This document shows, piece by piece, positions 5,826 to 63,905 of a stretch of DNA of 64,000 nucleotides. The translations under genes were made by a program, and so were the position numbers. Each line of letters starts with the position of its first letter. Position 1 is the first letter of the stretch. The notes beneath the pieces were generated by a model. The model worked only from the letters and a program-made list of their open reading frames with translations, was not told the origin of the DNA and did not search any database. Source of the stretch: Marsupella aquatica (lineage: Eukaryota; Plantae; Marchantiophyta); assembly GCA_973895155.1 (NCBI GenBank), contig OZ316891.1:32251208-32315207 (forward strand). The letters run 5' to 3'.

Positions 5826-5975
5826 AGTTACGAGTAAACTCCCTTTACGAGTTTACGAGTAAACTCCCTTTACGAGTTTACGAGTTTACGAGTAAACTCC
5901 CTTTACGAGTTTACGAGTTTATGACTTTACGAGTTTACGAGTTAGGACTTAAGAGTTTACGAGTTACGCTTTACG
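5826..5975 (+). repeat. Short tandem repeat (TTTACGAG) in LTR-A
   Basis: Directly visible 8-mer repeats. Confidence 0.9.
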
Positions 5976-6177
5976 ATTTGGCGATCCTATGTCGTGACAT
6001 CTTACGGCTAGTTCAACGGGACTCCACAATAGAAGAAGAGCGCGCCTTGGAAGGGAAGGAATGCAGGACATAAGCGCTCATTACTGACTTCTCTTCCACC
6101 TTACCTCTCAGACTCTTACAGAATTCAACCGGTATTTCAGAGATGTCAAATGGAGGCTTCACCCTTTCTATTCTAGG

Positions 6178-36549: not shown

Positions 36550-36921
36550 AGGTGTTTACAAAAGACAGCAAACAGGAAACAGGATTTAATAACATAAACT
36601 GGTAACAGGTTAAAAATCTGGTAACAGGAAAATGGGTGGAATTTTCTTTTGATTTTTTTTGAAATTTTTTTTTTTGAGAAAAAAAAAGTTTTTTTTTCCG
36701 GTCGACCACTTTTTTTTGCTAGCGCCCGGTGCTGCTAATAGTAGCGCCCAAAGCTAGCCAAAAATATTGCATTGTTAATTTTTTTTGGAAATAACATGTT
36801 TTAGGAGACATTTTTAAATTGTCATTTTTCCTGGTAATAGTGATTTTTTCCTGGCAATAGCATTTTTAAAACAGGAAAAAAAAATCCTGTTTTCCTGTTT
36901 CCTGTCTCCATCGCTATACCC
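36550..36921. mobile_element. 372-bp MITE-like insertion in pol
   Basis: Flanked by direct repeat GGGACAACG (36541-36549, 36922-36930). AT-rich. Imperfect terminal IR containing AGACAG(C/G)AAACAGGAAA(A)CAGGATTT. The 9-bp TSD suggests a Mutator-type element. Confidence 0.7.
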
Positions 36922-36934
36922 GGGACAACGTTGC

Positions 36935-38362: not shown

Positions 38363-39510
38363 TACAGGGTCACCTACATAAAGAAGGAGTTAATGGGAAG
38401 CTACGACGCTGCTTAGAGTACAAGGAGACGCTCATTGTTATGCGGGCCTTGCATGAAGAAGAAGCTGGAGGTCATTTTGCGTCTCTCACGACAGCCCGAA
38501 AGATTCTGGATTTGGGGTATTGGTGGCCTACGTTGCATCGAGATGTACAACGCTTTATCAAGGGATGTGATTTGTGCCAACGGGCTGGTGCCCCAAGGAG
38601 AACCCATAACCACCCCCTCACTTCTGTGCTCCCGCTAGCACCATTCGAGAAGTGGGGTATTGATTATATCGGGCCGTTCACTCCCGTTACCCGAAGACGA
38701 AGATGCAGGTACATCCTGCTAGCTATAGATTACTCCACCAAATGGGTCGAAGCACGGGCTACGGTAAAGGACAACGCTACAACCAGTGCCAGGTTCTTAT
38801 ACGAGCAGATCTTCACGCAGTTCGGGCTGCCCTTGGAATTAGTAAGCGACCCGTGGAACACATTTCCTCAATGACACCGTAGCCCAGCTTACGGAGCGTT
38901 ACCTAGTCAAGCACCGCAAGACTACCCCGTATCATCCTAAAGCCAATGGGCTGACAGAGAGAGCCAATGGGATCATTGGGAAGATCCTCAACAAGACAGT
39001 AGCCGTGCACAAAACGGATTGGGATGACAAGTTGTACGTAGCGGTGTACTCATATAATCTGGCTTACAAGACTACTACGAGTCACAGCCCATACTTTCTC
39101 GTGTTTGGCCAACATTTGTTGGTGCCCGTTGAGTTTGAAGTCCACACTCCACGGGTAAGCATTCGGGATCGCTTACCCGAAGCTGAAAGTTTGTCAGACA
39201 GAGCTTACCAGATTGAAGCATTAGAAGAAGCACGGCTACTGGCAGCTTGACATGTCGTAAAGCAGCAGGTAGCTTCCAAGAAGCAGCACAACAAAGGACT
39301 ACGGAAGGTCGACGTCATGACAGGCGATCTAGTCTTGCTGTACGACAGTAGGTACATGCAGTTTCTGGGGAAGCTTCATACCCATTGGTTAGGGCCTTTC
39401 CTAGTCAATCAGATCTATCCTAACGGATCTTTGGAACTTGCAACGTACGCCGGCGATTTACTACCCACGCGAGTTAGTTATGATCGTGTGAAGAAGTACC
39501 ACTATCAAGA
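38257..39510 (+). pseudogene. Integrase (frameshifted)
   Basis: HHCC (LHEEEAGGHF..GYWWP..CDLCQR), WGIDYIGP, IDYSTKWVEA, LVSD, TTPYHPKANGLTERAN, and GPF motif (KLHTHWLGPF). Confidence 0.92.
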
Positions 39511-40589: not shown

Positions 40590-42482
40590 TGTAGTTTGCC
40601 ATAGAGAACCAAAAATCACATTTTAAAGTCTCCAAACTCGGTATTCGTTCCCTTTAAGAACAAGATGGGGTTGGTTTGATGTAATAAACTAAAAACAAAG
40701 CTTTAAGCTCTTGTGTCACACATAGTAATCAATCTTGACTACTTTAAACAGGTACTTTGAAGATCGCTCCACAGCGGTGAGTAGTTTTTGATGATAACTC
40801 AACATCAGATAACCTTCAATTAAGCAAAAGATTGCAATTAACAAAACACAAGGAAAAATCTCTCAGAGTATGCTTAAGGGAGTCTGGAATAGACCAAGGT
40901 TACTCCTTAGACATAAGTAATAATGGAATGACTTTAAAGGGAATCCAAATCCACACGGCTTTTCAGATCTAAACTGCATACTAGAGTATCCTTTTAAAAT
41001 GCCGGCAACATGTCTTGACCTTTCTTCCTAAGTGATACTTAGTCAAGATCTAAAAGGATAAATACTTCAGCATTTAGATGGTACTAAGCAACATGAAGGT
41101 GAAAACATCATTTCCAATGTAACTTAAACTCAATGAGTTAACTCTAAGAACTTGTGAGATTACAATGTGTCACCAAAGCGGAATCTGACATTATAATTCA
41201 CGAGATTCATAACTGAGGTTTTACTTCAAGTATTTGGGTTCCAAAATACAAGAAGGAGGTAAGTCTCTCCAAATGTTAAACCTGATCTCGAACTCATAGA
41301 TTCATGATCAACTAGTTTAACACAAGGGAGAGGCAAAACTGCAAAACTTAACCATCTCTCTACACTAGGGGAAGAGGTATAAATAGTGATGAACTACAGA
41401 ATAAGAGGTCACAGGGTCGAAGAGACATGCCTCTTCATAACTCTCAAAAAGTCAAAACGACGATTCAATAAGTGGAAAGCCGGAAAAAATGGCTAAGTAT
41501 GAACTCTTAAACTCTTAAAAACTTAAACTCTTAAAAACGTAAAAACTTAAACTCTTAAACTCTTAAAAACTTAAACTCTTAAAAACGTAAAAACTTAAAC
41601 TCTTAAACTCTTAATTTCGGTATACTAAAAATTGAGTAGATTCAACTATTTTTAACTTTCTACTCCTGGTTCGGAAAACTCTGAAATTTTTCCAGCAGGG
41701 TTTCCTAGGTACAGACTACAGCCTAAAGAAGTCTCATAGCTTTTAAAGCTCTACAACACATTTAGAAAAATTGGTAAAAGTACTATACTTTTCAATACTA
41801 GCTAAAAATATAGTCTCCTTCAAGCTTGTTGTCGAATATCATCGGGTTCGAGCAGTTCCACGTAGGTGACAGTCCGATTCTGTGTTACCTCCATCAGCTC
41901 AGTCTGACGTGGTGATCCTCGAGAGTAGGGTAGGCACCTTAGTTGTCTCTCAGGATACATCAAAGGCATTCGCTTCATCAAATAACAGGAATCTATACGA
42001 AGAGCTTCTCTGTATATCCCTAGTACATCATAGTTGTTGCAGGTGGCAGCATATACTTGGGGATAGTGATGCAGAAACTCATCACTATTCATCATCCTGG
42101 AATAGAAGGGTCGAAGTCTCCATTTGACATCTCTGAAATACCGGTTGAAGCTGGGCAGAGTTTGAGAGGTAAGGTGGAAGAGAAGTCAGTAATGAGCGCC
42201 TATGTCTTGCATTCCTTCCCTTTCAAGGTGAGCTCTTCATCCGTTGTGGAGTCCCGTTGAACTAGTTGTAAGATGTCACGATCACAGAGTCGCCAAATCT
42301 TAAGGTGTAACTCGTAAAGCAGTGAACTAGTAAACTCGTAAACTGAGTTTACTCGTAACTTAGGAACTTAGTAACTTTGAATGCTGTTTTAGTTACAGTT
42401 AGCAATAATTGCAGTCTAAACACCGTAAAAAATTTAAAAATTTTCAGTTTCTTCATGCTTTTGGAATTACCCACTACTTACA
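40590..42482 (-). mobile_element. Solo LTR family A (1893 bp)
   Basis: TGTAG...TTACA termini. TSD CACCA at 40585-40589 and 42483-42487. Confidence 0.93.
41820..42095 (-). CDS. Small LTR-A-encoded ORF (91 aa)
   Basis: Third copy of the conserved ORF. Confidence 0.55.
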   Translation of the reverse strand: MMNSDEFLHHYPQVYAATCNNYDVLGIYREALRIDSCYLMKRMPLMYPERQLRCLPYSRGSPRQTELMEVTQNRTVTYVELLEPDDIRQQA

Positions 42483-47156: not shown

Positions 47157-48843
47157 GTTCTCCTTCATCTAGAGGATGTAAAGTTGCCCAAACATGATCT
47201 TGTTTATCATGGGATTGACGTATCTTCAATCCCTCTAGTCCATACTCTAATCCAGCTAGTCGATTCAGTCCCACTGCACTGTCTAGTAGAGATCCAAAGT
47301 CATAATTTCTCTCATGGCCACTCATGCCACCTACCTTGCTGAAAAATATCTCACAACAATCTGATCCCAACAAGTGAAATGGAACTTGCAAATATGGGAA
47401 CTTGTCCCGAAAGGCACATGTCACACCATTCTGAGTAGTGTAGTAGTATATCGTGCTATTAGAGTATGTATGTTTGGTATGAGTGCTATTGGAGCCGATA
47501 AGGTTCCGTCAGGTTTGTGTGAGAGGGTACTTCTCACTTGTGAAGCATTGAAAGGTCATCTTTCAATGTTGAGCCTTGGAGAGAGAGGAGCTTGAGTGTG
47601 GCTATGGTGGCTGTGAGCTCCGCTTGTGTAACATGGATTCCTTGAGTAGTGCAAGGTGCGTTGGCTTGACATACGTGTGTGATCGGATCGATGCGGGATT
47701 GATGGGGTATTGTTGACCGGGATCGTTGTGCCGATTGTATTGAGATTACATTGAAAGATCAGATGCAAACTCTGTTGTGCGGACTGTGCAAACAGAAGTT
47801 CATTTTGGATTGATCGAGCTGGTGATGGTTTGTGGAAATCGTTTCAATCTGTTGCGTGGATCCGTGGTATCTCGGATCTCATTGAGTAGATCGTTAGTCC
47901 TTCAATCTGCTGCAGTTTGTGTTGGCGAATGCTATTTTGAGGAAAGAGATCACAGATCATTGAAGATTGCAGATCGCTCATTGTGTCATCGGATCTGGGC
48001 ACATAACGCTGCTGTTGTAGCCGAGTTTGAATGTTGGTTTTCGTGGAGGAAAGCATTCCGCGAATGTTGGCAGATCGTCGGACAGTGGAAGTCATCTGCG
48101 AGGCTTCAGATCTGATTTTCGACTACTGTGATAAGGCACAAGTGAAGCGGCGATCTGCCGATGCTCCGCGCGGTTATGTGGAAGGGCCAATCCGCGCGAA
48201 GTTGCTGCAACTCGCGGATCCGAGCGACAGGGCGCCGACTGCTCGCAGCTGATCCGCAACTCCCGACTGTCCGTCGTTCTGTGAAGGGAAACTGAGAGAC
48301 GGAAATCTGAATGTTGCCGAAACTCGATTCGGTGTAGCGAAGCGTTGCGGGCGTGAAGGGCTCACTCTTTGGCTCATCTCGGCGTTTGAGGCTTCGAGGC
48401 AACTCGTGGCTATTCTGGGCCGTGAGCGCGAGGGGAGGCACGAGGTCGAGCGCGAGGAGGTCACCCATCCCGGGGCTATTCCCAGCCGCAAGCGCTTAAC
48501 TGGCAAGTTCTCATCCCACCTTGTGTACACACAAGCTTTGACAACTTGTTGTTTAGATTCAAGCGCCAGGGGGCTTTATACACTTCCCGGTTTGTTTAGA
48601 GGCCTATTCTAGGCCAAATCAAAGGTTGTTTCAGGGTTTTTGATACTTCTGAGTCCATCTAGACTCACATATTGAACCAATTTTGCCTTGGTTCTCATCT
48701 ACAACATTGGAGTGCCATTGTGAAGCCTATTATGAAGGCTCTTCCTTGAACCTTATGCACATTGTCATATTGATTTGCATTTGCTTTTGTGTGGAGAGTT
48801 GAATGATCAGCCTATTCATTAAAAGTGTATTATTATTTGATTT

Positions 48844-49146
48844 ATGTACATTTGGGCAATGAAAAGTGTACTTTTGGGCTTAGAAAAGTGTACATTTGGG
48901 GATAAAAAAGTGTACAATTGGTCTAAAGAGTGTATATTTGGGCAATGAAAAGTGTACATTTGAGCATCAAAATATGTACATTTGGCTTAAAAAGTGTACA
49001 TTTTAGTACATTTGGCCTAGAAAGTGTACATTTGAGTGAAAAAGGATACATTTGGCTTAAAAAGTGTACATTTCAGTGCATTTAGTCTAGAAAGTGTAGC
49101 TTTGAGTGCAACAAAGAGTACATTTGGCCTAAAAAGTGTACATTTT
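48844..49146 (+). repeat. Left subterminal repeats AAAAGTGTACATTT
   Basis: About a dozen spaced copies. The motif overlaps the inner TIR sequence. Confidence 0.85.
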
Positions 49147-49366
49147 CCTGAAAACTTTTATTGTAATCATTTAAAATAAAGAAATTAATAAAAAATATTT
49201 TTAATTATGCAGAAAAAATAAACATTCATATTCATAATAATCAAAAGTTTAGAAAATGAGTAGATAGTCTACTAAGTAACTAAACACTCAATGGCATGGT
49301 CTCACAATATATATAATTCTTACATAAAAACTAGTAACTATCTAATTATACCTTAGCTAGTGACAA

Positions 49367-52300
49367 CTAAGTGTACTTGTCCATCCTTTGGAGATAACTT
49401 TGGACAGTTTGTAGAACATTTCGAGGAATCTTCAAACCTCTGCCAACCATGTTTTCTTCCTTCATTCCAGATTTAAAACCATACATTGCAGAATTTGCAT
49501 ACTGCCAATGTTGAGTGTTCTCACCAAATCCTGGATCTCGTTCCCATGTCTTGGTGGACATGAAACAATTGAGATACCTAGCACTCTCACTCACATCAAG
49601 TTTAGAGTGTTTAGGCCTCCACCATTCCACGGGGAACATTGGAGCATATTGTTGAGTCAAAGGAGGGTCTCTTGAAGATGCAATTGGGACTTCATGCTTA
49701 GGGTCCACCTGACCCAAAGCTCTCACCAACCAGAAATGACCTCCACCATTTTTCTTCTCCCAATCATCCTCGGGTCGAAGAAACACAAAGTTTCCTTCAC
49801 AAATATCCTGGAGGGGAATCCACCGTCCTTGTTCTCTCTCAGCTCGAGATCCAACAAATGGTGCTGCTTGATCTTCCATCTCTTCCAAGACTTCATTTTG
49901 AAGAGCTGTCATCTCTGCAGTCTCCTCATCTTCACTTAGAGGACCACTCTGTTTGCATGCCGATTGGTTGACCTTGTAACCAGTGCCGTGGTTAGTCTTA
50001 GGCCAAAATCCATTTTTCAATGGAAATTGATTATTTCCCTCCCCTTCCATTGCAAGCCCATTTGACAACAGCTCCACAATTCTTTCCCAATATTTAACAA
50101 GAGGAAATCTTTCCTTGTATGCTATTGAAGTCTCATCAATGCAACTCCTTCTCAAAAAATCAAGGTACTTGTTAAGGAATGGGATTATCTCTTCTGATTT
50201 TTTGTGTATCTCTCCTATGGATTTAGCTAAGGGTTGTCCACTGGGTAAAAGAAGAGAATTTGTTATTGGATCAGTTTCCCAAATGCACCTTCCGCCAACG
50301 GGAGCCCAAGCTTGCTTAACATGGGACTTATACTGAAATATTGGTACATTATCTCTCATAGAGAAAAGAAATGATACCGGTTTTGAGTGACCTTGAATAT
50401 CTTTGACCTTAAAACTTTGAAGATATTCTTTGTAAGATGCAACTTCTTGTATCAATCTTGGAACTGGATGAATGCTCTCACATTCCCAAACCTCTGCCAT
50501 TAGTGCAAGAAGGGTTGCAACTTCCTTGTGCTGAACTTGATATGATACCTTGGAAAATAGTGCATCAACATCTTCGTGCGTATGACCAACCATTAGAAAG
50601 GACATTTGAACAGTTTCAAATATTCCTCTACTCACAAGCTCCGAGCAAAATGCCATGACCGTTTGGTTTTTGTTGTCCTTTGCTGAATTATCCATTTGCA
50701 ATGTTAGGTGCCTTGGCAAGGGCATGAACAACGGACTGCCCTTCTCACCACCCACGTCCCCTCCATCATCCTCATCCTGTCGGGTTGTGATGGTCTCAGT
50801 CTGACTGTCGGTAGCTCCATCTTCAGAACCAATATACCTATTTACTTGAATATTCTTTGGTTCCAAATATCCCGACAAAAATGCATCAAAGTCAAGTAGG
50901 GCTTGAAAGAAAGGTTTGTGAGGTTCCCAATGCAAGCCATCAAGCATGTCACCTGTCTTGTCTCCATTGTACTCTTCAAGATCTCGAAGACATTTAGCCA
51001 AGGATGTCATTGTGAAATCTGCATCTCCTGGCCAAAGGCCAGTGACACTAAAGTGTGCATATACTCCTGGATCTCTCCCGTGGGTCAACATCCCCGTGAG
51101 AGCGATAGGTAGCGACATTCCATGACCCAAAAGTGATTTAGGAGTACTAACCATTTTTGGAATCCATGTCTTTGCTTGATCCATCTTGTCGTGAATAATG
51201 CAAAGATATTCTCCTGGATGTTGCTTGGCCATCACTCGATGAGCGTAGTAAACATATCTACGTGACATTTGCTCACAAAGATGTTGAGCTCTTCTTTCTT
51301 CAATTTCAGCACGTTCTTTTTTCCTTCTCTCTCGCATCAAACTGTCTTTGTATTCACAACAAAGCGTACACTTGGCAAATGCGCCATCCTTGTGAAAACT
51401 GAAGTTTGCAAATGATGTGCTCCATATCTTGTAGAGAGTGTTATCCGTAACAGGAGGAAGCCCTTCTTCCTTCATCTTTGTTCTCACATCTTCCAAAATC
51501 TCTAACTTTTTGTAACACGCTAGAAGTTGATACTCAATGCTGTCTGTCCCATGAGCCCCTCCATAAGGCATATGAGGCATTGGCTCTGCATTTTGAGTCA
51601 AAAATGCCTCTAGAAGAGCTCGCGCATGCAAGGTATTTGACCTTGTTTTCTTCAAGCCTGTGTTCCCATGGAACCCAATTTTGCAACCCTCCATGTATCT
51701 TCTCTTGTAATCATAATACTTGGTGTGACTAAAACCATGGATGGTTGCAAATGCATCTTTACAGATGACCATACCTTTGAGAACATGGTGTCCCTTATCA
51801 CGAACATCATCCTCTCTGTAGTGGAAGAGGTTGAAAATGTGTGATGTTTTGGACTCGCTAGACATCCCATGAAATTCCATCCTAACATCTTCTATATCTT
51901 CCCTTGGCATAATGAGACAACATTTATGCTTGCAGCAATTTACTCTTTTGATCTCATCGATTGCGGCTTCTATTGTTTTTGAAACTGCCTTGGTTTGCAA
52001 GAGCCTCCTTTTCTTCTCAACAGGATCAACTTGATTCCTCTTGTTGAAGTTATATGGCCTTTGACGACATCCGGATACGGATCCAACCACATGATCCGGA
52101 TTCAGATCATCCCTATCCATTGACTCCATATTCTCTGTACCTTCTACCAGAATGTCTGACAAAAATTTTCCAGTTGCTACTAGTTTTGTGTGATCAATTC
52201 GCCACCGAACCAAACTAATTACTCCCTTGTTAATGCTTGGAAAGTATTGCGATTCCATGACATCTTTCACAGCAACCCCTACATAGTCTTCTCCCAAGAT

Positions 52301-53158
52301 TTCATCATCAACAGCCGCCGTTGCTTGAGGCATAGTGATAGTCCCAGTGGCAACCTTACTCGATCGTTCTGAACCAATGTATAATTCGACCAACTCTGAC
52401 ATCCAGTTGGACCATTGGTAATAATCAGAATGAGTTTTGGTCGATTTTGTTGATGGAGAATGTGAGACAAAACTCTCCTCAATTAAAACGTCGCCATCAC
52501 CTTGCTTCTTAGAGGAAGACTTTCTACCTTCATCAACATTCCAACCTTTTTTATGAACATCGGCCAAGTCCCAGAGAACCCATGAGTCTTTTGCCTCTTC
52601 AATTGTTTCAGCCCCATTGTGTATGTAAGGTAAAGCCTTACTACCATGAATAACATCAGTGATTTTCACACTGATCCGAGACTCACCAAGAAATATGTTG
52701 TGACATCGGTCCTTTGGATTTACCTTGAAAATAACTCCAAGGGCTACACAACACCCATCAATGAGCATTTCAACCTCGTCCCCTTGCCTTAGAGTGTTTG
52801 ATGCATCCTCCATAACAATTGTAGGAGATTTATCCAAGTTATTATCTGGTCGAGTTGAACAACTACCAGTACTGATGCGTTTTGGGGAATCTAGAGTTAT
52901 AGAGAGATAGGCGCACGAGATCTCCCAAATAACACATGAGTCAATGGCATCGAAAAGATTTTCTACCCTTGGTAGTGGAAATGGTAGTTTTTGAGTTGGC
53001 TCAAAAACCTTCTCCACGAGCACACCAATTCGATTATCTCCCAACAATATGTTGTGCACCCTATCCTGGGGGTTAATTTTCTGAAGTGTCCCATAACCGA
53101 CATCATATCCATCAATTGTCAAGGTCACATCATCACCTCTTGAAAACCTTCCAGTCAT
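49367..53158 (-). CDS. Sola-like DDD transposase, intact (ATG 53158; ORF open from 53182)
   Basis: FAKCTLC CxxC..H motif. Candidate catalytic Asp motifs IIHDKMDQ, LQMDNSAKDNKN and FLMVGHTHEDVDALFS. Three N-terminal ~75-aa repeats and a C-terminal beta-rich domain. Confidence 0.88.
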   Translation of the reverse strand: MTGRFSRGDDVTLTIDGYDVGYGTLQKINPQDRVHNILLGDNRIGVLVEKVFEPTQKLPFPLPRVENLFDAIDSCVIWEISCAYLSITLDSPKRISTGSCSTRPDNNLDKSPTIVMEDASNTLRQGDEVEMLIDGCCVALGVIFKVNPKDRCHNIFLGESRISVKITDVIHGSKALPYIHNGAETIEEAKDSWVLWDLADVHKKGWNVDEGRKSSSKKQGDGDVLIEESFVSHSPSTKSTKTHSDYYQWSNWMSELVELYIGSERSSKVATGTITMPQATAAVDDEILGEDYVGVAVKDVMESQYFPSINKGVISLVRWRIDHTKLVATGKFLSDILVEGTENMESMDRDDLNPDHVVGSVSGCRQRPYNFNKRNQVDPVEKKRRLLQTKAVSKTIEAAIDEIKRVNCCKHKCCLIMPREDIEDVRMEFHGMSSESKTSHIFNLFHYREDDVRDKGHHVLKGMVICKDAFATIHGFSHTKYYDYKRRYMEGCKIGFHGNTGLKKTRSNTLHARALLEAFLTQNAEPMPHMPYGGAHGTDSIEYQLLACYKKLEILEDVRTKMKEEGLPPVTDNTLYKIWSTSFANFSFHKDGAFAKCTLCCEYKDSLMRERRKKERAEIEERRAQHLCEQMSRRYVYYAHRVMAKQHPGEYLCIIHDKMDQAKTWIPKMVSTPKSLLGHGMSLPIALTGMLTHGRDPGVYAHFSVTGLWPGDADFTMTSLAKCLRDLEEYNGDKTGDMLDGLHWEPHKPFFQALLDFDAFLSGYLEPKNIQVNRYIGSEDGATDSQTETITTRQDEDDGGDVGGEKGSPLFMPLPRHLTLQMDNSAKDNKNQTVMAFCSELVSRGIFETVQMSFLMVGHTHEDVDALFSKVSYQVQHKEVATLLALMAEVWECESIHPVPRLIQEVASYKEYLQSFKVKDIQGHSKPVSFLFSMRDNVPIFQYKSHVKQAWAPVGGRCIWETDPITNSLLLPSGQPLAKSIGEIHKKSEEIIPFLNKYLDFLRRSCIDETSIAYKERFPLVKYWERIVELLSNGLAMEGEGNNQFPLKNGFWPKTNHGTGYKVNQSACKQSGPLSEDEETAEMTALQNEVLEEMEDQAAPFVGSRAEREQGRWIPLQDICEGNFVFLRPEDDWEKKNGGGHFWLVRALGQVDPKHEVPIASSRDPPLTQQYAPMFPVEWWRPKHSKLDVSESARYLNCFMSTKTWERDPGFGENTQHWQYANSAMYGFKSGMKEENMVGRGLKIPRNVLQTVQSYLQRMDKYT

Positions 53159-53295
53159 TCTCGGATTTAGTAACCTGCACAATTTTCAGAAAAACCATCA
53201 CAAATCCGAATGACAAGAATTTGAAGAGACTCACAATTATCCATACGGTCATTTGATTGCCATTCCGCGAATCCAAACGTTGGCTCAACTATCAC

Positions 53296-54432
53296 ACTTG
53301 GATTGGGGTGGTCCAAATCAAAACCACAAAGATTGTATTCCGAAGGTCAAATTTAAGCATCTCGCTTGAATTGGGATCGTCCGAATCCAAACCAACCTCT
53401 ATCCAACACACCCTCTTGGATTTGGATGGTCCGAATCCAAACCCAGATGGGATCCCAAAGGTCCCAATTCAACAAACGCGCTTGGATTGGGATGGTCCGA
53501 ATCCAAACCCAGATTTTATTTCAAAGGTCCCAATTTAAGCACCGGGCTTGGATTCGGATGGTCTGAATCCAACACCAGATTGTATTTCAAAGGTCCGAAT
53601 TCAACCCACCATCTTGGATCCGAATCCAAACACAGATTCTATCCCAAAGGTTACAATTCAACAAACCGGCTTGGATTGGGATGGTCCGAATCCAAACCCA
53701 GATAGTACTTCAAAGGTCCCAATTTAAGCATTGGGCTTGGATTCGGATGGTCCGAATCCAAAACCAGATTGTATTCCAAAGGTCCGAATCCAACCCACCA
53801 TCTTGGATTCGGATGGTTCGAATCCAAACACAGATTCTATCCCGAAAGGTCCCAATTCAACAAACCGGCTTGGATTGGGATGGTCCGAATCCAAACCCAG
53901 ATTGTATTTCAAAGGTCCCAATTTAAGCATCGGGCTTGGATTTGGATGGTCCGAATCCAAAACCAGATTGTATTTCAAAGGTCCGAATCCAACCCACCAT
54001 CTTGGATTCGGATGGTCCGAATCCAAACACAGATTCTATCCCGAAGGTCCCAATTCAACAAACCCTCTTGGATTGGGATGGTGCGCGAATCCAAACCCAG
54101 ATTGTATTTCAAAGGTCCCAATTTAAGTATCGGGCTTGGATTCGGATGGTCCGAATCCAAAACCAGGTTGTATTTCAAACGCCCAAATTCAATCATCTCG
54201 CTTGGATTGGGATGGTCCAAATCCAAACCGAGATTGGATCCCAAAGGTCACAATTTAAGCATTGCACGCTTGGATTCGGATGGTCCGAATCCAACACACC
54301 CAAGATTGGATTCTGATCAGATGGTCCCAATCCTACAAAATGGATTGGATTCGGATCATCCGAATCCAAACAACAATCTAGGATTAGGACCATTATAATC
54401 CACACATCAAGTCTGGATTCAGATGGTCTAAC
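53296..54432. repeat. Array 1 of palindrome TTGGATTCGGA-TGG-TCCGAATCCAA (~66-bp monomers, ~198-bp trimers)
   Basis: About 17-19 copies. Higher-order period visible at 53671, 53870 and 54068. Lies in a putative minus-strand intron (GT at 54637, AG at 53175). Confidence 0.93.
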
Positions 54433-54902
54433 TCCACAATGAAGATTATGTTGAGATGGATATATTGAGATTGAGATCTCTTCCTAATCAAATTTAGACA
54501 TTCCGGGTTTTTTGGAACATTGGGTAATTCGTGAAATAATAATTGGGAAGTCACTAGAATGCAGAACAAAGTGAAAGGTAAACCCTAAACTTCCCTAAGA
54601 ACTCAAAATAAGCAAAGCGACTAAGACCATAACTCACCTCAGCAGTCTTGTTTTTCCAGTATGTCTCCAAGGTTGGCTCTGCTACCTCTAAATTGATGAA
54701 TAAGTTCATATCAAACTGACTAAGAAAGCTATCAAAGCCACTTCAAGTCTAAACTCCATCAGAGAGAAGAGCTGAGGAGGAGTTGCGCAGACCTGGATGC
54801 CCAAGTGAAGATATGAAACTAAAACAACAATGATGTCCGTAGAGTACCTCTTATACTCGTGGGTTGGTATGTTCGGCCCTGAATGTGCAATCCGATAAGG
54901 TT

Positions 54903-55012
54903 GAGGCAACACCGAGTATCGCGGTTAGAACAATCATCCAATCCTTTTTCAATCCATTGTGTCAGACAAAGGATTGGATGATTGTTCTAACCGCGATACT
55001 CGGTGTTGCCTC
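54903..55012. other. Perfect 45-bp inverted repeat with 20-bp loop between divergent genes
   Basis: 54903-54947 is the exact reverse complement of 54968-55012. Confidence 0.95.
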
Positions 55013-55393
55013 CCAAACTGATAGGACCAGATCCCTTCTTGGTCTCTATCCGTACAGAGATCATCCGTACAGAGATGATCCGTGTAGCGATCATCCGTAC
55101 GCAAACAAGCCTTTCAGGAGGGGGTAAAGGGATGACAAGGTCTTCCATAGACCTCATTGTTGTTTCGCTCTCTGTCGCTCCTCACTGTCGCTCCTCACTC
55201 TCGCTCCTCACTCTCGCTCCTCACTCTCGCTCTAGCTCCTCATTCTCACTCCTTGCTCTCGCTCTTGGCTTGCTGCCGCCGCTATCCCTTGCCCTTGCCC
55301 TAATTGCCTTCTTGCCCTAATCTGTTGCAACGCCCTAGATCTTGCCCATCTTGACGTGTCCTCAATATATCCTGCCACGTGTCACTCCTAAAA

Positions 55394-58300
55394 ATGGAAG
55401 TTGCCAAGAAAACTGTCATTGTCCTGCTCGCCGAAGAATCTGATGACTTGGATCTCTCCTCTGTCGGTGATCTTGTGGCCCTAGCGCTTGGGGATTCCCA
55501 AGAATTTCAATCACAAGTCCAAAGTAAGTTTCCAGAGGTTTATTCATGCATCTTAAGTTGTTGGATTCGGATGGTCCGAATCCAAGAGGGTTGTTTGGAT
55601 TCGGACCATCCGAATCCAAGTGGGTTGTTTGGATTTGGATGGTCCGAATCCAAGTGGCTTGATTGGATTCGGATGGTCCGAATCCAAGTGGCTTGATTGG
55701 ATTCGGATGGTCCGAATCCAAGAGGGTTGTTTGGATTCGGACCATCCGAATCCAATGGGTTGTTTGGATTTGGATGGTCTGAATCCAAGTGGCTTGATTG
55801 GATTCGGATGGTCCGAATCCAAGTGGCTTGATTGGATTTGGATGGTCCGAATCCAAGAGGGTTGTTTGGATTCGGACCATCCGAATCCAAGTGGGTTGTT
55901 TGGATTCGGATGGTCCGAATCCAAGTGGCTTGATTGGATTCGGATGGTCTGAATCTAAGAGGGTTGTTTGGATTCGGACCATCCGAATCCAAGTGGGTTG
56001 TTTGGATTCGGACCATCCGAATCCAAGTGGGCTTCTTGTATTGGATTTGGATGGTCCGAATCCAAGAGCCCTCAATCTCACTTTGACAGTGATTTCTTAA
56101 AACAAATTTCATGGATTTAAAGTCTAATATGAATTTTCACTCTCCAATGCAGAGAGTGATCTGGTGAATACAACTCTCGCCATTTCAGAGGCAGACTGCG
56201 ACGATGGGTTCATTTTGGAGGACCGCGATCCAGGATTTCAGTGGGGACTTGAGTTCTCGCGAGTAAACTTCCGCCTAAATTCATTTAACATTCAGGATCC
56301 AGTGTTATGTGTCAAGATCAGGACAGGCAACAACCAAACATTGGTCATCGGACCCGTGGTCTCTGTGGGAATGATAGGAAGAGGAATGAATTCTATCATT
56401 GTAGAGGTGTCGGACACGATGAGGTGGGCAAAGTTGCAGCTCCCGTCAAAGGCTTTCTCGGCCGAGTTCAATGTGGAATGGTATGCAAGTGGGGAATTAA
56501 GTGTGTTGTCGATGGGATTCTTTCCAAAATCCTACACAAAGGAGAAGATTATTGGAGGACTGAAGGGAATGCTTCCTTTGGACATTTTTTATGGGTTTCT
56601 TTATTTGAAACTCAACATTGTAAACAACCCATCAAAGTTCTCTCTTCCATCCACATGGACTCTTAACAATTTGCTTCAGAAAGCAGGTCTGGTGTCACCA
56701 GACTCAAATGTTTGGATCACCAAGGCACTAGCCTTTGCACACACGCTTGACCTGGAAAAAGCAAATCTATGGGTAGAGTCTTTGGTGAAGTTGAGGAAAA
56801 GTACACAACCACAGAACATAATTGAGTCTACGCCAGCCAAAGGAACTCCAGCAACTACGACGGAGATAGCACAAACTACTGCAGCAACAACCATGGATAG
56901 AGCGGCAGGGAAGCGGAAGTAGAGGGAGAAGAAGCTTCCGGTTGAGAAACCTACTTCAGTTGAGAAGAAGATCACGGCTCCAGCCGAGAAGAAGAAGCTT
57001 CCAGCCGAGAAGAAGTCGAGGGAGAAGAAGAAACAAAAAACCAACACCGGAGTTGTGAATTCAACTCCTGTAGATTTTTCATTACATGCTGAAGATGAGG
57101 GTGATAGGCCACATGCTCCAGAGGAGAAAGACGTCTTAGAAGGGAATGAAGTTCTTCAACAAATGGAGCAGTACTATACTTTTGGGATAAACGAAATTTT
57201 TCTGATCCCAGTTGAAAGTATTTTTGCCGCACCAGCGAGACTATGCTATCGGATGATGAATTTTGATCATGTGCAAGACATTGTTGATTCCATGATCAAA
57301 ACACCTGGGCATGAGCCACATGTCGCTGATTTGATTCCTTTTAATGTCGAGCGAAGAAAGGTACTCCACTTTGAGAATACGGAGTCGGACCGGAAGGATT
57401 TTTTGGCCAGAGTGAAAAAGGGCGAGGTCCAATTTCTAGCAGTTAGTGGTCAGCACTCTGCGAGAACTGCGAGATGGATTCATGATTGGGCAACGAAGGA
57501 TGCCAAGCTCACCCAGTTGGCCAAGAAGTTAGAATTCAGGAAATCCAGAATATTGTCTAATCGCACACCGTCTTCAATTCTTGTTGAGCACTCCATGAGA
57601 TCGAACGCCATCAATAGCACGATGGTGTTTCAGTCTTGCTTTAAAGATACAGTTGTCCATGCGAGGCGGCAGTTTGTTGAATGTGGAAATCCAGACAAAC
57701 CAAAACATGGCGACAACAAAACAAATGCTCAAGACAACCAAAAATTTCAGGTAAGAAATGTGATTACTTTGTATGCATTTCTCTACCATAGAGAGTAATT
57801 CTATTTTGGATTCGGATGGTCTCAGTCCGACACAATTTGTCAAAGAGTATTGGAACTTTTGGAATGTTTAGTACAAGTTTTGTTTTTGATTGAGACCATC
57901 AGAATCCAAAACTATTATCGCACATTAGAATCCTTTTTTTCCAACCCTTGAGTTGGGGATAACTGACTAGCTTTCCTTTTGGATTGTAGGATTGGTTGGC
58001 TCTGGCAAGAATGACTATGGGCAGGAAGGACTTGCGAAATGTATATTGGCTACTTTTTGCGGACAATGATCTTTTTGAGTTGTGGCGGTTAGTCTGTGAG
58101 ATGTGGTTGCATGGGAAACTTCCTAATGGAGCTGGGATGGAAGGAAATAACAAGTCCAAAAAAGCAATTACCGTTGCCATGTTTCGTCCCTTTGATGGTG
58201 AGTTGATCTCACAGAAAGACATCACAAAAATCCTGACACAAGTGAAGTCAAGAAAGGCATTGCTGAAGAAAGATGCCACTAATAAATCTGACATACCCTC

Positions 58301-61300
58301 AATAGAGGAGCTTGCGAAGGATGTGAAAAAAGTGAGGAAGCTCAAGTCTCTCATTGAAGAGTACTACTTCGGCAAGGATCCAAGGAATTTCCCTTCGGAT
58401 ACCGACTGGAAGAAAGTTGTAGAGGTTCTGCCATTGTTGAGTGTTGATGCAGAATTCAGTAGATGCAGAAGAGCGGCTGGTGAAGTTTTTTTGTCAAATC
58501 TGTTGAAGCCAAATCATACTAGGGAGAGTGCAATCTTGCCAATAGCTCTGGTGATGCGCCTTGATGACATTTATTGCCAGAAGTTTGGCGGAGGGACACA
58601 TTCTCGGAGCCAACCGTGGGTCACGTTCTTTAGTGACAATCTAATGAAAACAGTTGATCCACCAGCAATAGAAGAATCATCTCCAACGTGCTCACTTGCC
58701 ATTGTTGACTTCAGTCAAGATCACCAGAAGCTGTGGACGGAAGTAGAAGTTTTGGTCTTTCTGCAATACATTGTGGAGCTACCACGAAATCTTACAATCG
58801 TTGTAGCCATAACTGTTCATCCGGGGCCTCTTGCAATGAATGTCCTAAGCTCACTTCGAAAATTGGGACAAGAGAAATCTCTCACGATTCACATTGAGTA
58901 TGGGAGTTATTCTCGAGAGGATCAACCACACCCGCTTGATTCGTGTTGGGGAGGCGGAATTGAAGAAGTTATATTTGCAGGAATTTCTCGAGATGAAAAT
59001 GTCAATTGGAATGATGTTTTCAAACCCAATCACCCAAAGCCAAAATTCTTTTTTGGTTCAAAAGATACTGATTTTGAGGTCACCAAGATTGACACTGGGA
59101 AGGCAAAGGTTGACACAGACGACGTGTCAAAACCCGAAGATCTAAAAATGATGCTGACCCCAGAAGAGGCGACCAAGGTTTTGCACATGGCCCCTTGATT
59201 GAGATAGTTGGTGCTCGTGGTGGTTGGGTGAATCCACATGCCAAACCCACGCGGATGATACAGAGGATTATTGAATCCTTGTCAGAAGCTGGAGACTTGA
59301 TTCTTGATTTTTTCTCGGGTGGTCAAGTGATGAAGACATCATTCTTGGTGCAACGCGAATGCTTTGTTTATTGTGACTCTCAAGATGAGAGACACTTTGT
59401 GGAAGCGTATGCTTCATTCCTTTGCGAGAGGGTCCCCTCAATCAAGGAAAATTGGGATCCTCGTGGTGGGAGTTCTAGGCATTGGAAACCCACTATTGCG
59501 GATGTTTCTGCCAAACATGAATCAGCTGATAATTCCGAAGAAGTGAGCGCTAAGTCAGTCAAAGATGATGGGGAATCAGAGGTGGCGTATGCAAAGAATT
59601 TGGATGACCGTGTAGGTCAAAGTGAAAGCATAGAACCCTACGATGTTGATGATAACATTGGTCTTGCACCACGCCCTTCATCAGGTGCAGATGACGTCCC
59701 TTTGGAACCCTATGAAGTTGAGGTTGATGACAACTTGGACAAGGATGGTCTCAATCCAAATGTGGTGCAACGAGAAACGGACGGAATTGGTGATCCAATT
59801 GACATTGATACATTTGAAAATCATTCGTCAACCAATTTGGTCGTGGACGGTGGAGACAGACAGGTCAATTCGAATGAAGCTGACACCCAAAATTTGATTC
59901 CCGGGACGGCTATCGAAGTACGTGAGATTCCCATGACCCCAAAAGCCCGTGCATCAGCGACTATTGACAACCAGGCAGGTGCTTCAATTTGTCCTGACAC
60001 ACTCTTTTCAGCTTCTGATGACAAATTGGTTTTTGTTCGTTCACACTCGGGAAGTCCAGTTGTCCTTCCTTTCTCAAAGAAAAAAGGGAATAGAGTTGGA
60101 TCAAGCGGATGGAGGTCACTTGAACGTGATGCACGATGTTATGTGTGGAAAAGTGGGCCAAATAGAGGCCAAGAAGTTTCATTGGATGCTGCTCCATCGA
60201 TTCTTAACAGGAAGGAGTATAAGAGAGGAGAATTGGGATTGATAACTCCTGTTTGGACGTCACCTTATTGGGTAGAACAAAGTACTTCAGATGTCAACTT
60301 TGAAATCCAAGAGGAGCTGGGTGTTGACATTATTGATGAATACGGATCTCTTTTTTCAGACTGAGATCAAACCGTCTGACTTTCCATTTTTTCATACCAA
60401 TCTAAAATACTTCTCGGTCTCACAGAATGCGGTCAGCAATTAGAGCCTCGATATCCACCTACGCTCTTTGGGGCTTCTAAAAATGGTATGTAGGTTTTCT
60501 TTGTTGTTAGTCATTGTCTTGTATTTTTGGACTGAGATTGTCTCAGTCCAAAGTTCAAATTTGGTTTTCTTTCTAAGAGTTGTATTTGTTGCACTTGCAG
60601 AATCGAGACCTTGTCCCATCAAGCGGAAGTTGCTGATTTTGGATCTTAACAAAATACTTTGGGATTCACTTGAATTCCAAAGCAAGGGCAAATCCAGAAA
60701 CATTGTGACCCCAAATGGAGTGCATTGGGATAGATCAAATGGAACTAGTCGCATGTATACAGAGAGGCCAGGGTTCCATGAGTTTCTAAAGTTGGTTTTT
60801 GACCGGTTTGACGTTGCAATTTGGACATGTGCTGGGATGCCGCGGACAGTGAAAATGTTGAACATGATGTTCACTGTTGAGGAGCGGTTGAAACTGAAGT
60901 TTGTATTCACACAGGTGGAAGCCTTTGACACAGGCATTCAAAGGCGTGACATTACAAATGGAAAGGCAAATGTGCTATTGAAGGATTTTCGGGTGGTATG
61001 GAGTGCATTTGGAAATCTATATGATGAAACCAACACACTCCTTGTGGATGACTCCCCCTTGAAGGCATTTGCCAACCTAGACATGACCGGACTATTTCCA
61101 GTGCCCTACACGCATGCCAATCGTGGAGACAATTTTCTTCTAACAATTCTTTGGCCATGTCTTGAGAAACTGTCACATGCAAGTGACATTCGTTGTTATC
61201 TTCTCCTAAACTCTCCAAAGTGGTCTCTATTGCACATTAAGAGAGACAAGGCAAAAAATGAGATTACTTATGATCAACTTAGTAAGAGATGTGCAGCAAA

Positions 61301-61637
61301 AATTTGGAAGTCACAGTATAGGCATAGTGTGCTGGACCTCAATAGCAATGAGATTCCTTGGGCTGTGAAGCACCGTATATGTAGCTTACGTCCTGAGGTG
61401 GAACTTGACGATGCACTTGTCACCTCACTTACTAGATCATTTGTAGGACGGGAATATTCAGGTTTGTATAGAGAAAATCCCAGACACTTTTTGCGGGAGA
61501 TTATAGCAGTTAGGAACAACACCACCAAATTTCATCTCCCTGAAGATAAAGGGAGTTGCAACCGTGACATTAGGGTAGATAGTAAAGGAGACAAGGGCAC
61601 GTGCTCAAATAAATATTGTAAGGAGCACTTTGTTTAG
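55394..61637 (+). pseudogene. Spliced cargo gene: ParB/Srx-like + beta-class N6A/N4C DNA methyltransferase-like + FCP1/NIF HAD phosphatase-like (~1750 aa reconstructed)
   Basis: Exons 55394-55523, 56153-57750, 57990-60485 and 60601-61637 are joined by GT-AG introns that keep frame. Lesions: TAG 56920, frameshift between 59114 and 59195, TGA 60362 and TGA 60377. Motifs: YRMMNFDHVQDIVDSM..FLAVSGQHS..SN (ParB-like); NPHAKPTRMIQRIIESLSEAGDLILDFFSGG (MTase motifs X/I); LLILDLNKIL, RPGFHEFL, VAIWT, NTLLVDDSPLK (NIF). Confidence 0.75.
55561..56065. repeat. Array 2 of the same 25-bp palindrome (34-bp period, ~15 copies)
   Basis: Copies at 55561, 55595, 55629, 55663, 55697... with recurring 9-bp spacers. 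Entirely inside intron 55524-56152. Confidence 0.95.
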
Positions 61638-61896
61638 AGATCTGACTCATGTTAAGCCCATTAGATTGTAAAAATGGGTGCCAGCCCTGGATATTCATCG
61701 TAAGTTTGGACACAATTGTATATAATTATTTCACACATTATCAATCAATGGTCCTTGCCTAGGCTTCTTTGTGCGTAAATGTTTTTACAAGTATGATCTC
61801 TATCCCATGGTTCTTTGTGAACTAATAAGTAATATAATACTATTATAATTAATATAATATAATATAATAATATAATACTAATAAGATTTGGCCTAT

Positions 61897-61976
61897 AAAG
61901 TGTACATTTAGGTATCAAAAAGTGTACATTTGGGCTTCTTAAAGTGTACATTTGGGGACATAAAAGTGTACATTTC
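61897..61976 (+). repeat. Right subterminal repeats AAAGTGTACATTT (4 copies)
   Basis: Same motif as the left end. Confidence 0.85.
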
Positions 61977-62267
61977 AGGACTGATTTGTGAACAAAAGAA
62001 AATACACTTTTAATGAATAGGCTGATAATGGTATCCATTCTTGTTTCTGGATCCTCTTCACACATGTTTCCTATTTATGCGCCATGTTAGTTTGGTGTGG
62101 GCATTTGATTCCATAAGAATGATCCGGGTTTGCAACCGGACATTCTAGTTGTGCTGCGTATTTCTCTCCCGGTGATGTTGGAGTGATGCCCAACACACCA
62201 TGGTGAGTGCTTGTGGTGCTGACAGGGATAGATTGCCCTTAGGGTTAGCACATAGATTAGGTTAGGG

Positions 62268-63905
62268 TTGGTCACCACGGATTCTTCTGGTGCTGCTGGA
62301 TTACCCAATGGACGACGGACCAGTTTCACTCGGAGTGGGGCACAGTTTCGGCCAACGGCATTGGTAGCAGTCAATAGTGCAGCTTCAGACAGTGATTCTG
62401 ATGAGGACTCAGTGACCAGTTCTCCTCGTCATCAGGTGGTTGCACCTTTGTTGTGGGATATGGACGAGATGTACGGGGCTACAAAGGGCCCACGACGATA
62501 CTCTGGTGCAGTTGGCACAATTGATCTGGATGACTTCATCCAGGAGTTTGATACGTGGTGCGATATGCAGACATTGCATAACGCCACGTTGTTTACCCCT
62601 TTCATGGCATGGAAGGGATTATTTCAGCATTTGGAGGGGCCACCCATGGATGACTACCATGAGTTTCGGAAGGCTCATTTGGTTGAGATTGAGGCATGGA
62701 GGCAGCATTGGTCACCTAATTATGTGTCCATCACCTATGGCACTAGTGCGGCTGCCCAACCCATTGCCACAGCTGTTGCCTCTTCTAGCAGCACTAGCCA
62801 GAGTGGCACACCATCCACCAGCAGCACTCCAGCAGCATCCACCGCTACTCCTGCCGGTGTGATTGTGACAGGAACTGGAGTTGCGCCAGCATTTAATCCT
62901 GTGGTGGAATTCTTTGAGGTACTGAAGCAGAACTATCAGGGTGTGAGAACTGATAAGTTGAAGGGTCTCCAGGAGTTCCACCGCAAGACTGGAGAGAGTC
63001 TACGTGAGGCATACACTCGTATGCACAGATTGATCACTGTCACCAAGGGAGTGATAGAGGCTCAAGCAGTCCAGTTTTGGTATGCAATTTTGGATAGAGA
63101 ATTGCGACGTAGAGTGAGAGATGTCACTCTGCTTAGGGATGCAGATCCCACATTAGCAGTTGTTTTCACCCTTTCTGAGCGCATTGAGCTCAATATGGTG
63201 AATGAGAAGGTGGTGACTTCTGGATTTACCAAGGAAGCACCAAAGGCTGCATCTACATCCACACCACAGCCTACTGCATGGAAGAGCCAGAGGGAGAAGC
63301 CTACTGCACGAGAGTCTACCAGCCAGAGACCTGTGCCCTCTTATGCTGGACAGCAGTCAGGATGTTGCACCTGTGGTGGGGATCATGCACGGAGATATTG
63401 TCCAGATCATAGAGGATCAGGGGGAGCATCAGCGCCTGATCAGCGACAGTGTGATCACTGTGGAGCTCCTGGACACACCAAGGATAGGTGTTTCTCACTC
63501 CATCCTGAGTTACGGAGAGGAGGATCCCGTACACATGATCAGGGAAGAGGAGGAGGAGGTAGAGGGGGTGGACGTGGTCGTGGCATGCCACATGCAGGGA
63601 GACAGGGAGGTAACGCTGCCCCTGCTGTAACCATAGATCCAAAGGATGCTAAGATTGCTCAATTGGAGCAACAACTAGTTGCCATGGCTAGTTCCCAAGT
63701 GAGACCTACTTCTGGTGATGGGGCATCTACATCCTATGGACCTTCCACATCCCATGGTCCTTCCACATCTTATGGAGCTGATGGAGATCTTGCCACCATG
63801 GGATTCATGTCTGGCACTGCACATATTGATGCATCAGCAACTTTAACACGTGGGGTAGCCAAAGCTCTTGAGCCCCGAGGAGCAGTAGTGGAGCTAGATC
63901 CATAG
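62268..63905 (+). CDS. gag: Gag-like protein of another LTR retrotransposon
   Basis: RYSG..DLDDFIQEFDTWC, RKTGESLREAYTRM, knuckles CTCGGDHARRYC and CDHCGAPGHTKDRC, RGG-rich tract. The frame continues past the TAG to the window end. Confidence 0.8.
   Translation: MVTTDSSGAAGLPNGRRTSFTRSGAQFRPTALVAVNSAASDSDSDEDSVTSSPRHQVVAPLLWDMDEMYGATKGPRRYSGAVGTIDLDDFIQEFDTWCDMQTLHNATLFTPFMAWKGLFQHLEGPPMDDYHEFRKAHLVEIEAWRQHWSPNYVSITYGTSAAAQPIATAVASSSSTSQSGTPSTSSTPAASTATPAGVIVTGTGVAPAFNPVVEFFEVLKQNYQGVRTDKLKGLQEFHRKTGESLREAYTRMHRLITVTKGVIEAQAVQFWYAILDRELRRRVRDVTLLRDADPTLAVVFTLSERIELNMVNEKVVTSGFTKEAPKAASTSTPQPTAWKSQREKPTARESTSQRPVPSYAGQQSGCCTCGGDHARRYCPDHRGSGGASAPDQRQCDHCGAPGHTKDRCFSLHPELRRGGSRTHDQGRGGGGRGGGRGRGMPHAGRQGGNAAPAVTIDPKDAKIAQLEQQLVAMASSQVRPTSGDGASTSYGPSTSHGPSTSYGADGDLATMGFMSGTAHIDASATLTRGVAKALEPRGAVVELDP

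Follow-up and report, generated by a model that had tools for sequence, protein, structure and literature searches.

Can a transposon of a land plant carry its own means of staying transcribed under the DNA methylation of its host? The question is raised by a 13,221-bp element (48806..62026) in a 64,000-nucleotide stretch of the genome of the liverwort Marsupella aquatica (GenBank assembly GCA_973895155.1, contig OZ316891.1, positions 32,251,208 to 32,315,207 of the forward strand), the whole of which is called the window here. A Sola-like transposase gene is read leftwards from the middle of the element and a cargo gene, predicted to combine ParB-like, DNA-methyltransferase-like and phosphatase-like parts, is read rightwards; copies of one palindrome lie in dense arrays on either side of the region between them. 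The answer preferred here, to which slightly less than even probability is given, is that the cargo protein binds the palindromes on both sides of this shared promoter region and, as a scaffold, helps transcription to persist or resume under host silencing.

The element and its transposase

The ends of the element can be fixed independently of its terminal inverted repeats (TIRs). In contigs of all four public runs compared (at most four samples, from two studies) an empty-site joint, 48801 to 62027, skips 13,225 bases with four letters that fit either side, and so gives both ends and a 4-bp target-site duplication (TSD), AATG. With the perfect 26-bp TIR, this bears out the bounded 13.2-kb unit proposed in a first-pass annotation made from the letters of the window alone. 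A 2-bp AT TSD with shorter TIRs, also considered, is ruled out by the joint. The family is multi-copy with diverged subfamilies: between 1,448 and 8,960 contigs per run match the window, at identities from below 90% to above 99%. The insertion target is itself a high-copy repeat, just upstream of a gag-like open reading frame (ORF; 62256-63905).

The transposase runs from an ATG at 53158 to a stop at 49367 (1263 aa) without internal stop and matches Pfam DUF7869 (E=1.6e-43). In an alignment of the best 120 of 160 homologues the catalytic residues expected of an intact DDD enzyme are near-invariant, D657 being kept in 100 of 101 aligned sequences, D823 in 113 of 115 and D863/D865 in 109 of 110; a CxxC is present at residues 597-600. 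Sola elements are defined by a DDD transposase, a 4-bp TSD and TIRs, for which 11-1124 bp have been reported (PMC10741241), and this element has all three, so that its earlier designation as Sola-like stands. Placement in Sola1 is indirect. The transposase is 29% identical over 583 aa to a Physcomitrium DUF7869 protein (E=8e-68), the best match of the Ectocarpus element Sola1-1_Ec32 is given as Sola1-1_PPa (PMC12477816 supplement), and the Physcomitrium protein and Sola1-1_PPa would belong to one family. Named homologues of the element's proteins are from the liverworts Calypogeia fissa and Riccia sorocarpa and, more distantly, from Physcomitrium.

The transposase family is much expanded in Riccia sorocarpa, with at least 81 locus tags among the 120 matches listed. 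Close homologues carry PF26133 in the region equivalent to 52600-53158 (minus strand). The C-terminus (49370-49850, minus strand) is a conserved Trp-rich domain, with W1143, Y1195 and W1205, which at a guess is possibly chromatin-reader-like.

The cargo gene: structure, lesions and folds

The head-to-head arrangement of a spliced cargo gene, as first described, holds for its divergence from the transposase gene; its splicing is a prediction from splice consensus and reading frame, and the window copy is broken. The three predicted exons (Table 1) would without lesions encode about 1367 aa. The junction across intron 2 is supported by homologues, a Calypogeia gene model being continuous across it and Riccia models joining both sides. 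N-terminal and ParB pieces share one ORF in nine homologous proteins. An in-frame fusion to the phosphatase exon requires a weak donor at 60321, and the cargo ORF end at 60364 coincides with the end of six homologues, so that two isoforms and two genes are both possible for the methylase and FCP1-like parts.

The lesions are a TAG at 56920, in the basic linker of exon 2, and a one-base deletion at 59198 in exon 3. At 56920 other copies read CAG (runs X1 and X2); at 59198 the extra base is present in one X2 contig, X1 being without a contig that covers the site. Assembly error alone is an improbable source of the TAG, which is a CHG C>T change, and a possible one of the deletion. A variant with a 1.7-kb internal deletion (58835-60528), which removes most of the methylase fold, occurs in runs X1 and X2, and loose contig ends indicate other insertions into the cargo at 58175, 58815 and 59025.

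Structure prediction agrees with the ParB-like and methyltransferase-like identities first proposed, and a Pfam match with the phosphatase one. The 217-aa ParB-like piece (57100-57750) was modelled with a predicted local distance difference test score (pLDDT) of 92.5 on a 58-row alignment; a larger 276-aa query has 81 relatives at E<=0.001. In the VIA fold search its best match has Z 7.7 and a root-mean-square deviation (rmsd) of 4.1 over 119 aligned residues, and the top nine rows (Pnob8 ParB-N, PadC, KorB, free serine kinase, Atu1540, SbnI, two sulfiredoxins and SspE) are all, we take it, members of the ParB/Srx superfamily. Foldseek agrees weakly, the best match being Noc (E 2.8e-3), and the domain went undetected in Pfam, NCBIfam, PHROGs and PDB sequence searches. 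A ParB/Srx fold is thus predicted on scores that are consistent but middling. The methylase part was modelled on a Calypogeia homologue, P0002, whose identity to exon 3 is 43%; the model has a mean pLDDT of 53.9, and long parts of it are disordered. Residues 271-520 of P0002 match CcrM with Z 12.9 and rmsd 5.1 over 192 aligned residues, and the top 11 VIA rows are all amino-methyltransferases (Z 10.3-12.9; among them CcrM, RsrI, TTHA0409, MboIIA, EcoP15I Mod, PvuII and bdelloid N4CMT). Foldseek (E 1.8e-4) and a hidden Markov model match to RsrI (E 3e-6) point the same way, and the model has the predicted beta-class N4C/N6A fold with motif order IV...X-I. The third part matches Pfam NIF above cut-off (E=2.4e-14), its closest solved relative being UBLCP1 (E=1e-8).

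The N-terminal domain (about 200 aa, 56153-56900) is conserved at 24-33% identity in nine proteins, matches no known family and had no usable match in Atlas. The small C-terminal domain (60020-60360), which ends in DEYGS, is likewise conserved and matches no known family.

Altered catalytic motifs: scaffold or writer?

Measured against textbook catalytic motifs, all three cargo domains depart. In 41 of 58 rows the ParB box is SGQHS; its last position, which we take to match the arginine of the arginine-rich GxxR nucleotide-binding box of ParB, is S, T or L in all 58 and never Arg; the arginine characteristic of the ParB CTPase clamps (ParB/Noc/KorB) is in none of the aligned rows. Methylase motif IV is DFS, DFG, DLA, DFA or DLT in all eight sequences that cover it (P0215, P0216 and P0060 do not reach the region and are left out of the count), with the canonical (D/N/S)PP(Y/F/W) in none; the window copy has DFS, and DFFSGG at motif I. 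The phosphatase first motif is DLNKI, while FCP1/SCP/UBLCP1 (NIF) phosphatases have DxDx(T/V), and the Riccia model is without a stretch that matches this motif, its Pfam match starting at profile position 36. Strong conservation of the altered motifs suggests a retained binding role; non-canonical catalysis is possible.

An active amino-methyltransferase with a non-canonical motif, which would mark the arrays or their neighbourhood as self with N4-methylcytosine (4mC) or N6-methyladenine (6mA), is the best placed of the alternatives, though unlikely; it is also the reading of the authors on Ectocarpus. The predicted beta-class fold is complete, motif I is DFFSGG in 10 of 10 covering sequences, the motif IV Asp is kept in 8 of 8, each palindrome offers two CpGs, and another liverwort, Marchantia, uses a prokaryote-type N4 cytosine methylase (bioRxiv 2021.02.12.428880). 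That enzyme, DN4MT1, has TSPPY, however, and PP(Y/F/W) follows the motif IV Asp in none of the eight cargo homologues, where motif I also lacks the last Gly of FxGxG that M.RsrI has. Since no homologue examined has the canonical residues at motif IV or at the ParB arginine position, a scaffold is more likely than a writer, and the 'marking' half of the role first suggested for the cargo is weakened, its anti-silencing half being the one carried forward.

The palindromes and their arrays

The motif is an 11-3-11 interrupted palindrome of 25 bp, TTGGATTCGGA-nnn-TCCGAATCCAA. At up to four mismatches there are 33 copies in the element, as had been estimated, and none in the other 50.8 kb of the window, the range over which the motif may be called confined; 100 Markov resamples of the element gave no copy. 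Sixteen are in array 1, 15 in array 2 and two in a cargo intron. Both arrays are inside predicted first introns and flank the divergent promoter region. Beyond the array region five further sites score above the best score outside the element; three of them (57806, 57885 and 60527) are in predicted cargo introns 2 and 4, which make up 354 of the 5485 bases of that region, and two (59735 and 52096) are in coding sequence. Dense non-coding arrays of the kind known from VANDAL transposons, which belong to the Mutator superfamily, are present, with 31 sites in two predicted first introns and three variant sites in two others. In these variants (57806, 57885 and 60527) a CpG-free form stands in for one CpG-containing half-site or for both; the 11-bp symmetry of 60527 is still perfect.

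The two arrays differ in unit length (66 and 34 bp) and in spacers; they share the 25-bp core and a period of about 33-34 bp. In array 1 the palindromes are 95% alike and the spacers 65% (11 units compared), and in array 2 the arms are 96.5% alike and the 9-nt spacers 73% (14 units compared). A binding site under selection would be expected to look like this, with one core kept in two arrays whose spacers are unlike. The termini both carry another repeat, of 22 bp, so that the internal palindrome is not simply an end signal; the left subterminal repeats are likely transposase-binding sites.

Arrays that have nothing to do with the cargo come next in probability, and are again unlikely: the palindromes would serve the transposase as internal binding sites, or be neutral minisatellites that grew from one hairpin-forming sequence, and the cargo would be a passenger with another role. 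Introns tolerate repeat expansion, palindromes promote their own duplication and conversion (the central triplet of array 2 occurs in both orientations, 9 TGG and 5 CCA among the 14 compared), and a DNA-binding domain was not found in the cargo. Against this, the two arrays, which were amplified independently and are similar in period but unrelated in their spacers, have kept one core, the termini carry a different motif, and a ParB gene with adjacent inverted-repeat arrays recurs in an unrelated superfamily, that of the Plavaka element described below. Binding of the arrays by the cargo protein is the reading that is followed further here.

The central perfect hairpin noticed earlier is present, with arms 54903-54947 and 54968-55012. 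It matches no Rfam family at gathering score, all matches being below threshold and generic. Its arm has no 18-mer match elsewhere in the element at up to three mismatches and one outside, at 20469. A nested mini-element was rejected as its identity, the flanking 4-bp duplication being absent (GGTT versus CCAA). By eye, the inner arm resembles the array palindrome (GGATTGGATGATTG versus GGATTCGGATGGTC).

A probable signature of host methylation

Relative to the majority of copies over 3.9 kb the window copy has 29 substitutions, 19 of them C>T or G>A in the window. Seventeen of these 19 private changes are in CG or CHG, contexts that hold 28% of C (P=4.5e-8), and the premature TAG is one of the 17. 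Codon-boundary CpG is depleted in the transposase (0.36), cargo (0.41) and NIF (0.14) frames; four control ORFs give 0.90, 1.05, 0.70 and, for gag, 0.16. From the decay and the depletion together it is likely that the host methylates the element family, and this would provide a motive for anti-silencing. A centre-to-end CpG gradient (raw observed/expected 0.74 at the centre, 0.17-0.45 at the ends) was considered as a trace of spreading protection and rejected, because it is gone at codon-boundary sites along the transposase (0.38, 0.34, 0.44, 0.29).

Linkage of cargo and transposase in relatives

The Riccia protein R1sor_025532 (P0224), an automatic gene model, has ParB-like, helical, methylase and NIF parts in that order, which shows that their adjacency is old. 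A link between cargo and transposase family is also seen in the Riccia gene order, where 4 of 11 cargo homologues lie within seven locus tags of one of the 81 transposases listed (distances 2, 2, 6 and 7; null 4.1% per gene, P=7e-4). Only 2 of these 81 have another transposase at so short a distance. The 11 homologues were drawn from 30 proteins chosen for look-up, and the transposase tags from the best 120 of 160 matches. On the gene model and the gene order together, the cassette is old and appears to travel with the Sola-like transposase family. At least 11 ParB-like cargo models in Riccia sorocarpa are annotated as hypothetical proteins.

Non-plant collections say little. The ParB alignment gave 78 pattern matches in metagenome contigs and 29 in viral contigs, and the transposase core six in viral contigs, none of them confirmed; the exact palindrome had no match in metagenome contigs and the ParB piece none in phages.

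Weighing the proposed mechanism

In the preferred reading the ParB-fold/methylase-fold/FCP1-like protein would bind the element's own palindromic arrays, presumably as a dimer, and once there would help the shared central promoter region to stay in use despite DNA methylation by the host. It would do so as a binding and recruiting scaffold, in the manner of VANC, rather than by writing 4mC or 6mA. The splicing, the dimer on the 11-3-11 palindrome and the anti-silencing outcome are what we infer in this scheme. In its favour, the idea of self-binding is in print for Ectocarpus and Bostrychia.

Several observations tell against it. The ParB match is middling (VIA Z 7.7 at best, Foldseek E 2.8e-3 or higher) and is to the nucleotide-binding N-domain, not the parS-reading part of ParB. 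A helical region that follows the ParB domain has pLDDT 80-92; searches of the cargo gave no helix-turn-helix (HTH) and no other domain that reads DNA, the helical region having been searched only inside an 818-aa model. The greater conservation of core than of spacer is partly circular, the sites being chosen by likeness to the core. Given the CpG depletion described above, protection, if any, is neither durable nor element-wide, and the durable protection that could be read into the first-pass annotation is weakened further by CG/CHG decay in the window copy; within the arrays 18 of 62 CpG positions are changed, 11 by transition. Of the Riccia homologues, 7 of 11 have no listed transposase within 100 tags (they are 116-601 tags away), and the seven-tag window was chosen after the data were seen.

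The least probable of the three alternatives, that the cargo binds the arrays as an autoregulator (a KorB-like repressor of the divergent promoter) or as a looping factor in transposition, with host silencing unaffected, fits the symmetrical bracketing of the promoter region, the presence of KorB among the top fold matches and a CpG depletion expected of an unprotected element, but repression is without direct evidence and a methylase fold and C-terminal-domain-phosphatase-like domain, kept across liverwort orders, exceed the needs of a plain repressor.

Less probable still is a much bolder form of the anti-silencing scaffold. Land-plant transposons would carry a domesticated bacterial ParB/parS-like system, in which a dimer loads on intronic arrays and extends over its own element by spreading or bridging, like VirB of Shigella on its plasmid, the catalytically rewired methylase fold senses or shields cytosines, and the FCP1-like domain engages RNA polymerase II. 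Plants would then have a second anti-silencing system that owes nothing to VANC, is shared by liverwort orders and has kin in the ParB accessory genes of giant transposons in algae and perhaps fungi.

Relation to known systems

The class of element and the self-binding hypothesis are already in print, which overturns the earlier statements that the combination was undescribed and that Sola elements carry a transposase only. Sola1-1_Ec32 of Ectocarpus is 21.5 kb long with a 4-bp TSD, and has on the opposite strand a gene for a 1104-aa protein with ParB-like and N4/N6 methyltransferase parts (PMC12477816). Its authors propose self-binding and modification by that protein (PMC12477816, Genome Biol 2025), and cite Iyer 2011 for similar green-algal proteins. 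The two are alike as giant Sola elements with a 4-bp TSD, termini that begin with A and an opposite-strand ParB-methylase gene; unlike the window element, Sola1-1_Ec32 has an N4/N6 methyltransferase part on which modification is proposed, and it is from a brown alga and has a 282-bp imperfect TIR. The passages on it describe no FCP1-like domain and no palindromic arrays ('palindrom' has 0 matches in the main text), and do not comment on catalytic motifs. The two proteins are compared here by their description.

The second precedent is Plavaka (EnSpm) of Bostrychia, in which the ParB-domain gene PAG3 is beside tandem inverted-repeat arrays, and for which the analogy to VANDAL was drawn (bioRxiv 2025.02.11.637652). 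PAG2/PAG3 and the window cargo have in common a ParB-like accessory gene beside inverted-repeat arrays and an accessory gene part of N6-methylase type. Plavaka differs in superfamily and host, a red alga, and in its gene fusions, ParB being joined to a 2-oxoglutarate (2OG) oxygenase while another gene encodes the methylase together with a SET domain.

The motif arrays to which VANC21 of Arabidopsis binds lie in introns of VANDAL21 and in its upstream regions (PMC5735166), and the likely intronic position of the window arrays agrees with this, in keeping with the resemblance to VANC first remarked on. In both, a transposon-encoded accessory protein goes with dense tandem motif arrays in the element's own non-coding parts. 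The VANC21 motif, in contrast to the window palindrome, is 9 bp, non-palindromic and in one orientation, and VANC function is proven where that of the window cargo is proposed. With bacterial ParB-parS, Noc, KorB and VirB, the last a ParB-like anti-silencer that requires CTP (PMC10245682), the cargo would share the predicted ParB/Srx N-domain fold and palindromic sites. It is unlike bacterial ParB in its substituted GxxR arginine, in the HTH not having been found, in being without ParA and in being a spliced eukaryotic gene. ParB-linked adenine methylases are reported from chlorophytes and chytrids (PMC4738411).

The top language-model look-alikes of the ParB piece are fungal DUF3723 clusters (score 0.95), and DUF3723 is a conserved auxiliary gene of Starships, giant transposons of fungi (bioRxiv 2021.12.13.472469). 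Starships are tyrosine-recombinase elements, unlike the window element, and the language-model score, which is the whole of this lead, hints that DUF3723 is a ParB/Srx-fold transposon accessory domain.

Term searches of PMC5751038 and PMC6431247 found nothing on the cargo, and a full-text literature search, mostly judged by listing, returned no description of a land-plant element of this kind, an FCP1 fusion or degenerate motifs. The additions made here are a family from land plants, the union of all parts in one element that was mobile recently, arrays that are predicted to be intronic, a conserved FCP1-like addition and substituted catalytic motifs.

According to the Bostrychia paper no transposon other than VANDAL is known to bind its own sequence and modify it (bioRxiv 2025.02.11.637652); the two 2025 algal papers propose ParB-based accessory proteins as a further class, an idea untried there (PMC12477816, bioRxiv 2025.02.11.637652). 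The liverwort family unites transposase, cargo and a sharply defined candidate site in a compact element, which makes that idea directly testable. Near-identical copies have an apparently intact cargo frame, and this plant group has a tractable genetic model. With catalytic motifs substituted in the liverwort lineage, the prediction shifts to binding or recruitment over methyl transfer. If this holds, epigenome editing would gain a new part, a pair of protein and motif by which silencing is relieved.

Features of the element and its surroundings

Table 1. Positions of features of the Sola-like element in the window (strand: +, -, or. where none applies)
Feature	Positions	Strand	Basis
Left TSD, AATG	48802..48805	.	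End comparison; empty-site joint with 4 shared letters
Left TIR, 26 bp, perfect	48806..48831	+	End comparison
Left subterminal ~22-bp repeats, core AAAGTGTACATTT, 12 copies at <=2 mismatches	48845..49146	+	Repeat search
Sola-like DDD transposase, 1263 aa, uninterrupted	49367..53158	-	ORF; Pfam DUF7869; alignment
Predicted 5′-untranslated-region intron of transposase gene, 1463 nt, GTGAGT...TGCAG, holds array 1	53175..54637	-	Splice consensus only
Array 1: 16 palindromes, mostly 66-bp units, degenerate copies half-way between (~33-bp period)	53298..54369	.	
Hairpin between divergent genes, perfect 45-bp arms, 20-nt loop	54903..55012	.	z=-13.9
Pyrimidine-rich 13-bp tandem repeat 5′ of cargo ATG	55168..55265	+	Repeat search
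Predicted cargo exon 1, ATG 55394, in frame with exon 2 across phase-1 intron	55394..55523	+	Splice prediction
Predicted cargo intron 1, 629 nt, GTAAGT...TGCAG, holds array 2	55524..56152	+	Splice prediction
Array 2: 15 palindromes at 34-bp spacing	55561..56065	.	
Cargo exon 2: N-terminal domain, basic linker, predicted ParB/Srx-fold domain (~57100-57690, motif SGQHS)	56153..57750	+	
Cargo intron 2, two variant palindromes (57806, 57885)	57751..57989	+	Splice prediction; homologue
Cargo exon 3: helical region, predicted beta-class amino-methyltransferase fold, acidic linker, small C-terminal domain, stop 60362	57990..60364	+	
Predicted 60-nt phase-1/1 mini-exon, would join methylase part (donor 60321) to FCP1-like exon	60426..60485	+	
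Predicted intron, one variant palindrome (60527, perfectly matched 11-bp arms)	60486..60600	+	Splice prediction
FCP1/NIF-like HAD phosphatase exon	60601..61637	+	Pfam NIF; PDB sequence match
Right subterminal 22-bp repeats, 4 copies	61897..61975	+	Repeat search
Right TIR, 26 bp	62001..62026	-	End comparison
Right TSD, AATG	62027..62030	.	End comparison; empty-site joint

To the left of the element, positions 1-48800 of the window are a nest of repeats, with many segments of 0.7-1.9 kb duplicated at 75-95%. A long terminal repeat (LTR) element pol ORF is at 36818-38874, and related long ORFs of no known family start at 4869, 22422, 24808, 31498 and 44042. Short tandem arrays, with units GGATAGCGGACAC, TTTACGAG and AACTCTTA, are present at 7210-7511, 5828-5976, 21613-21677 and 41502-41614, and are possibly the subterminal repeats of other transposons.

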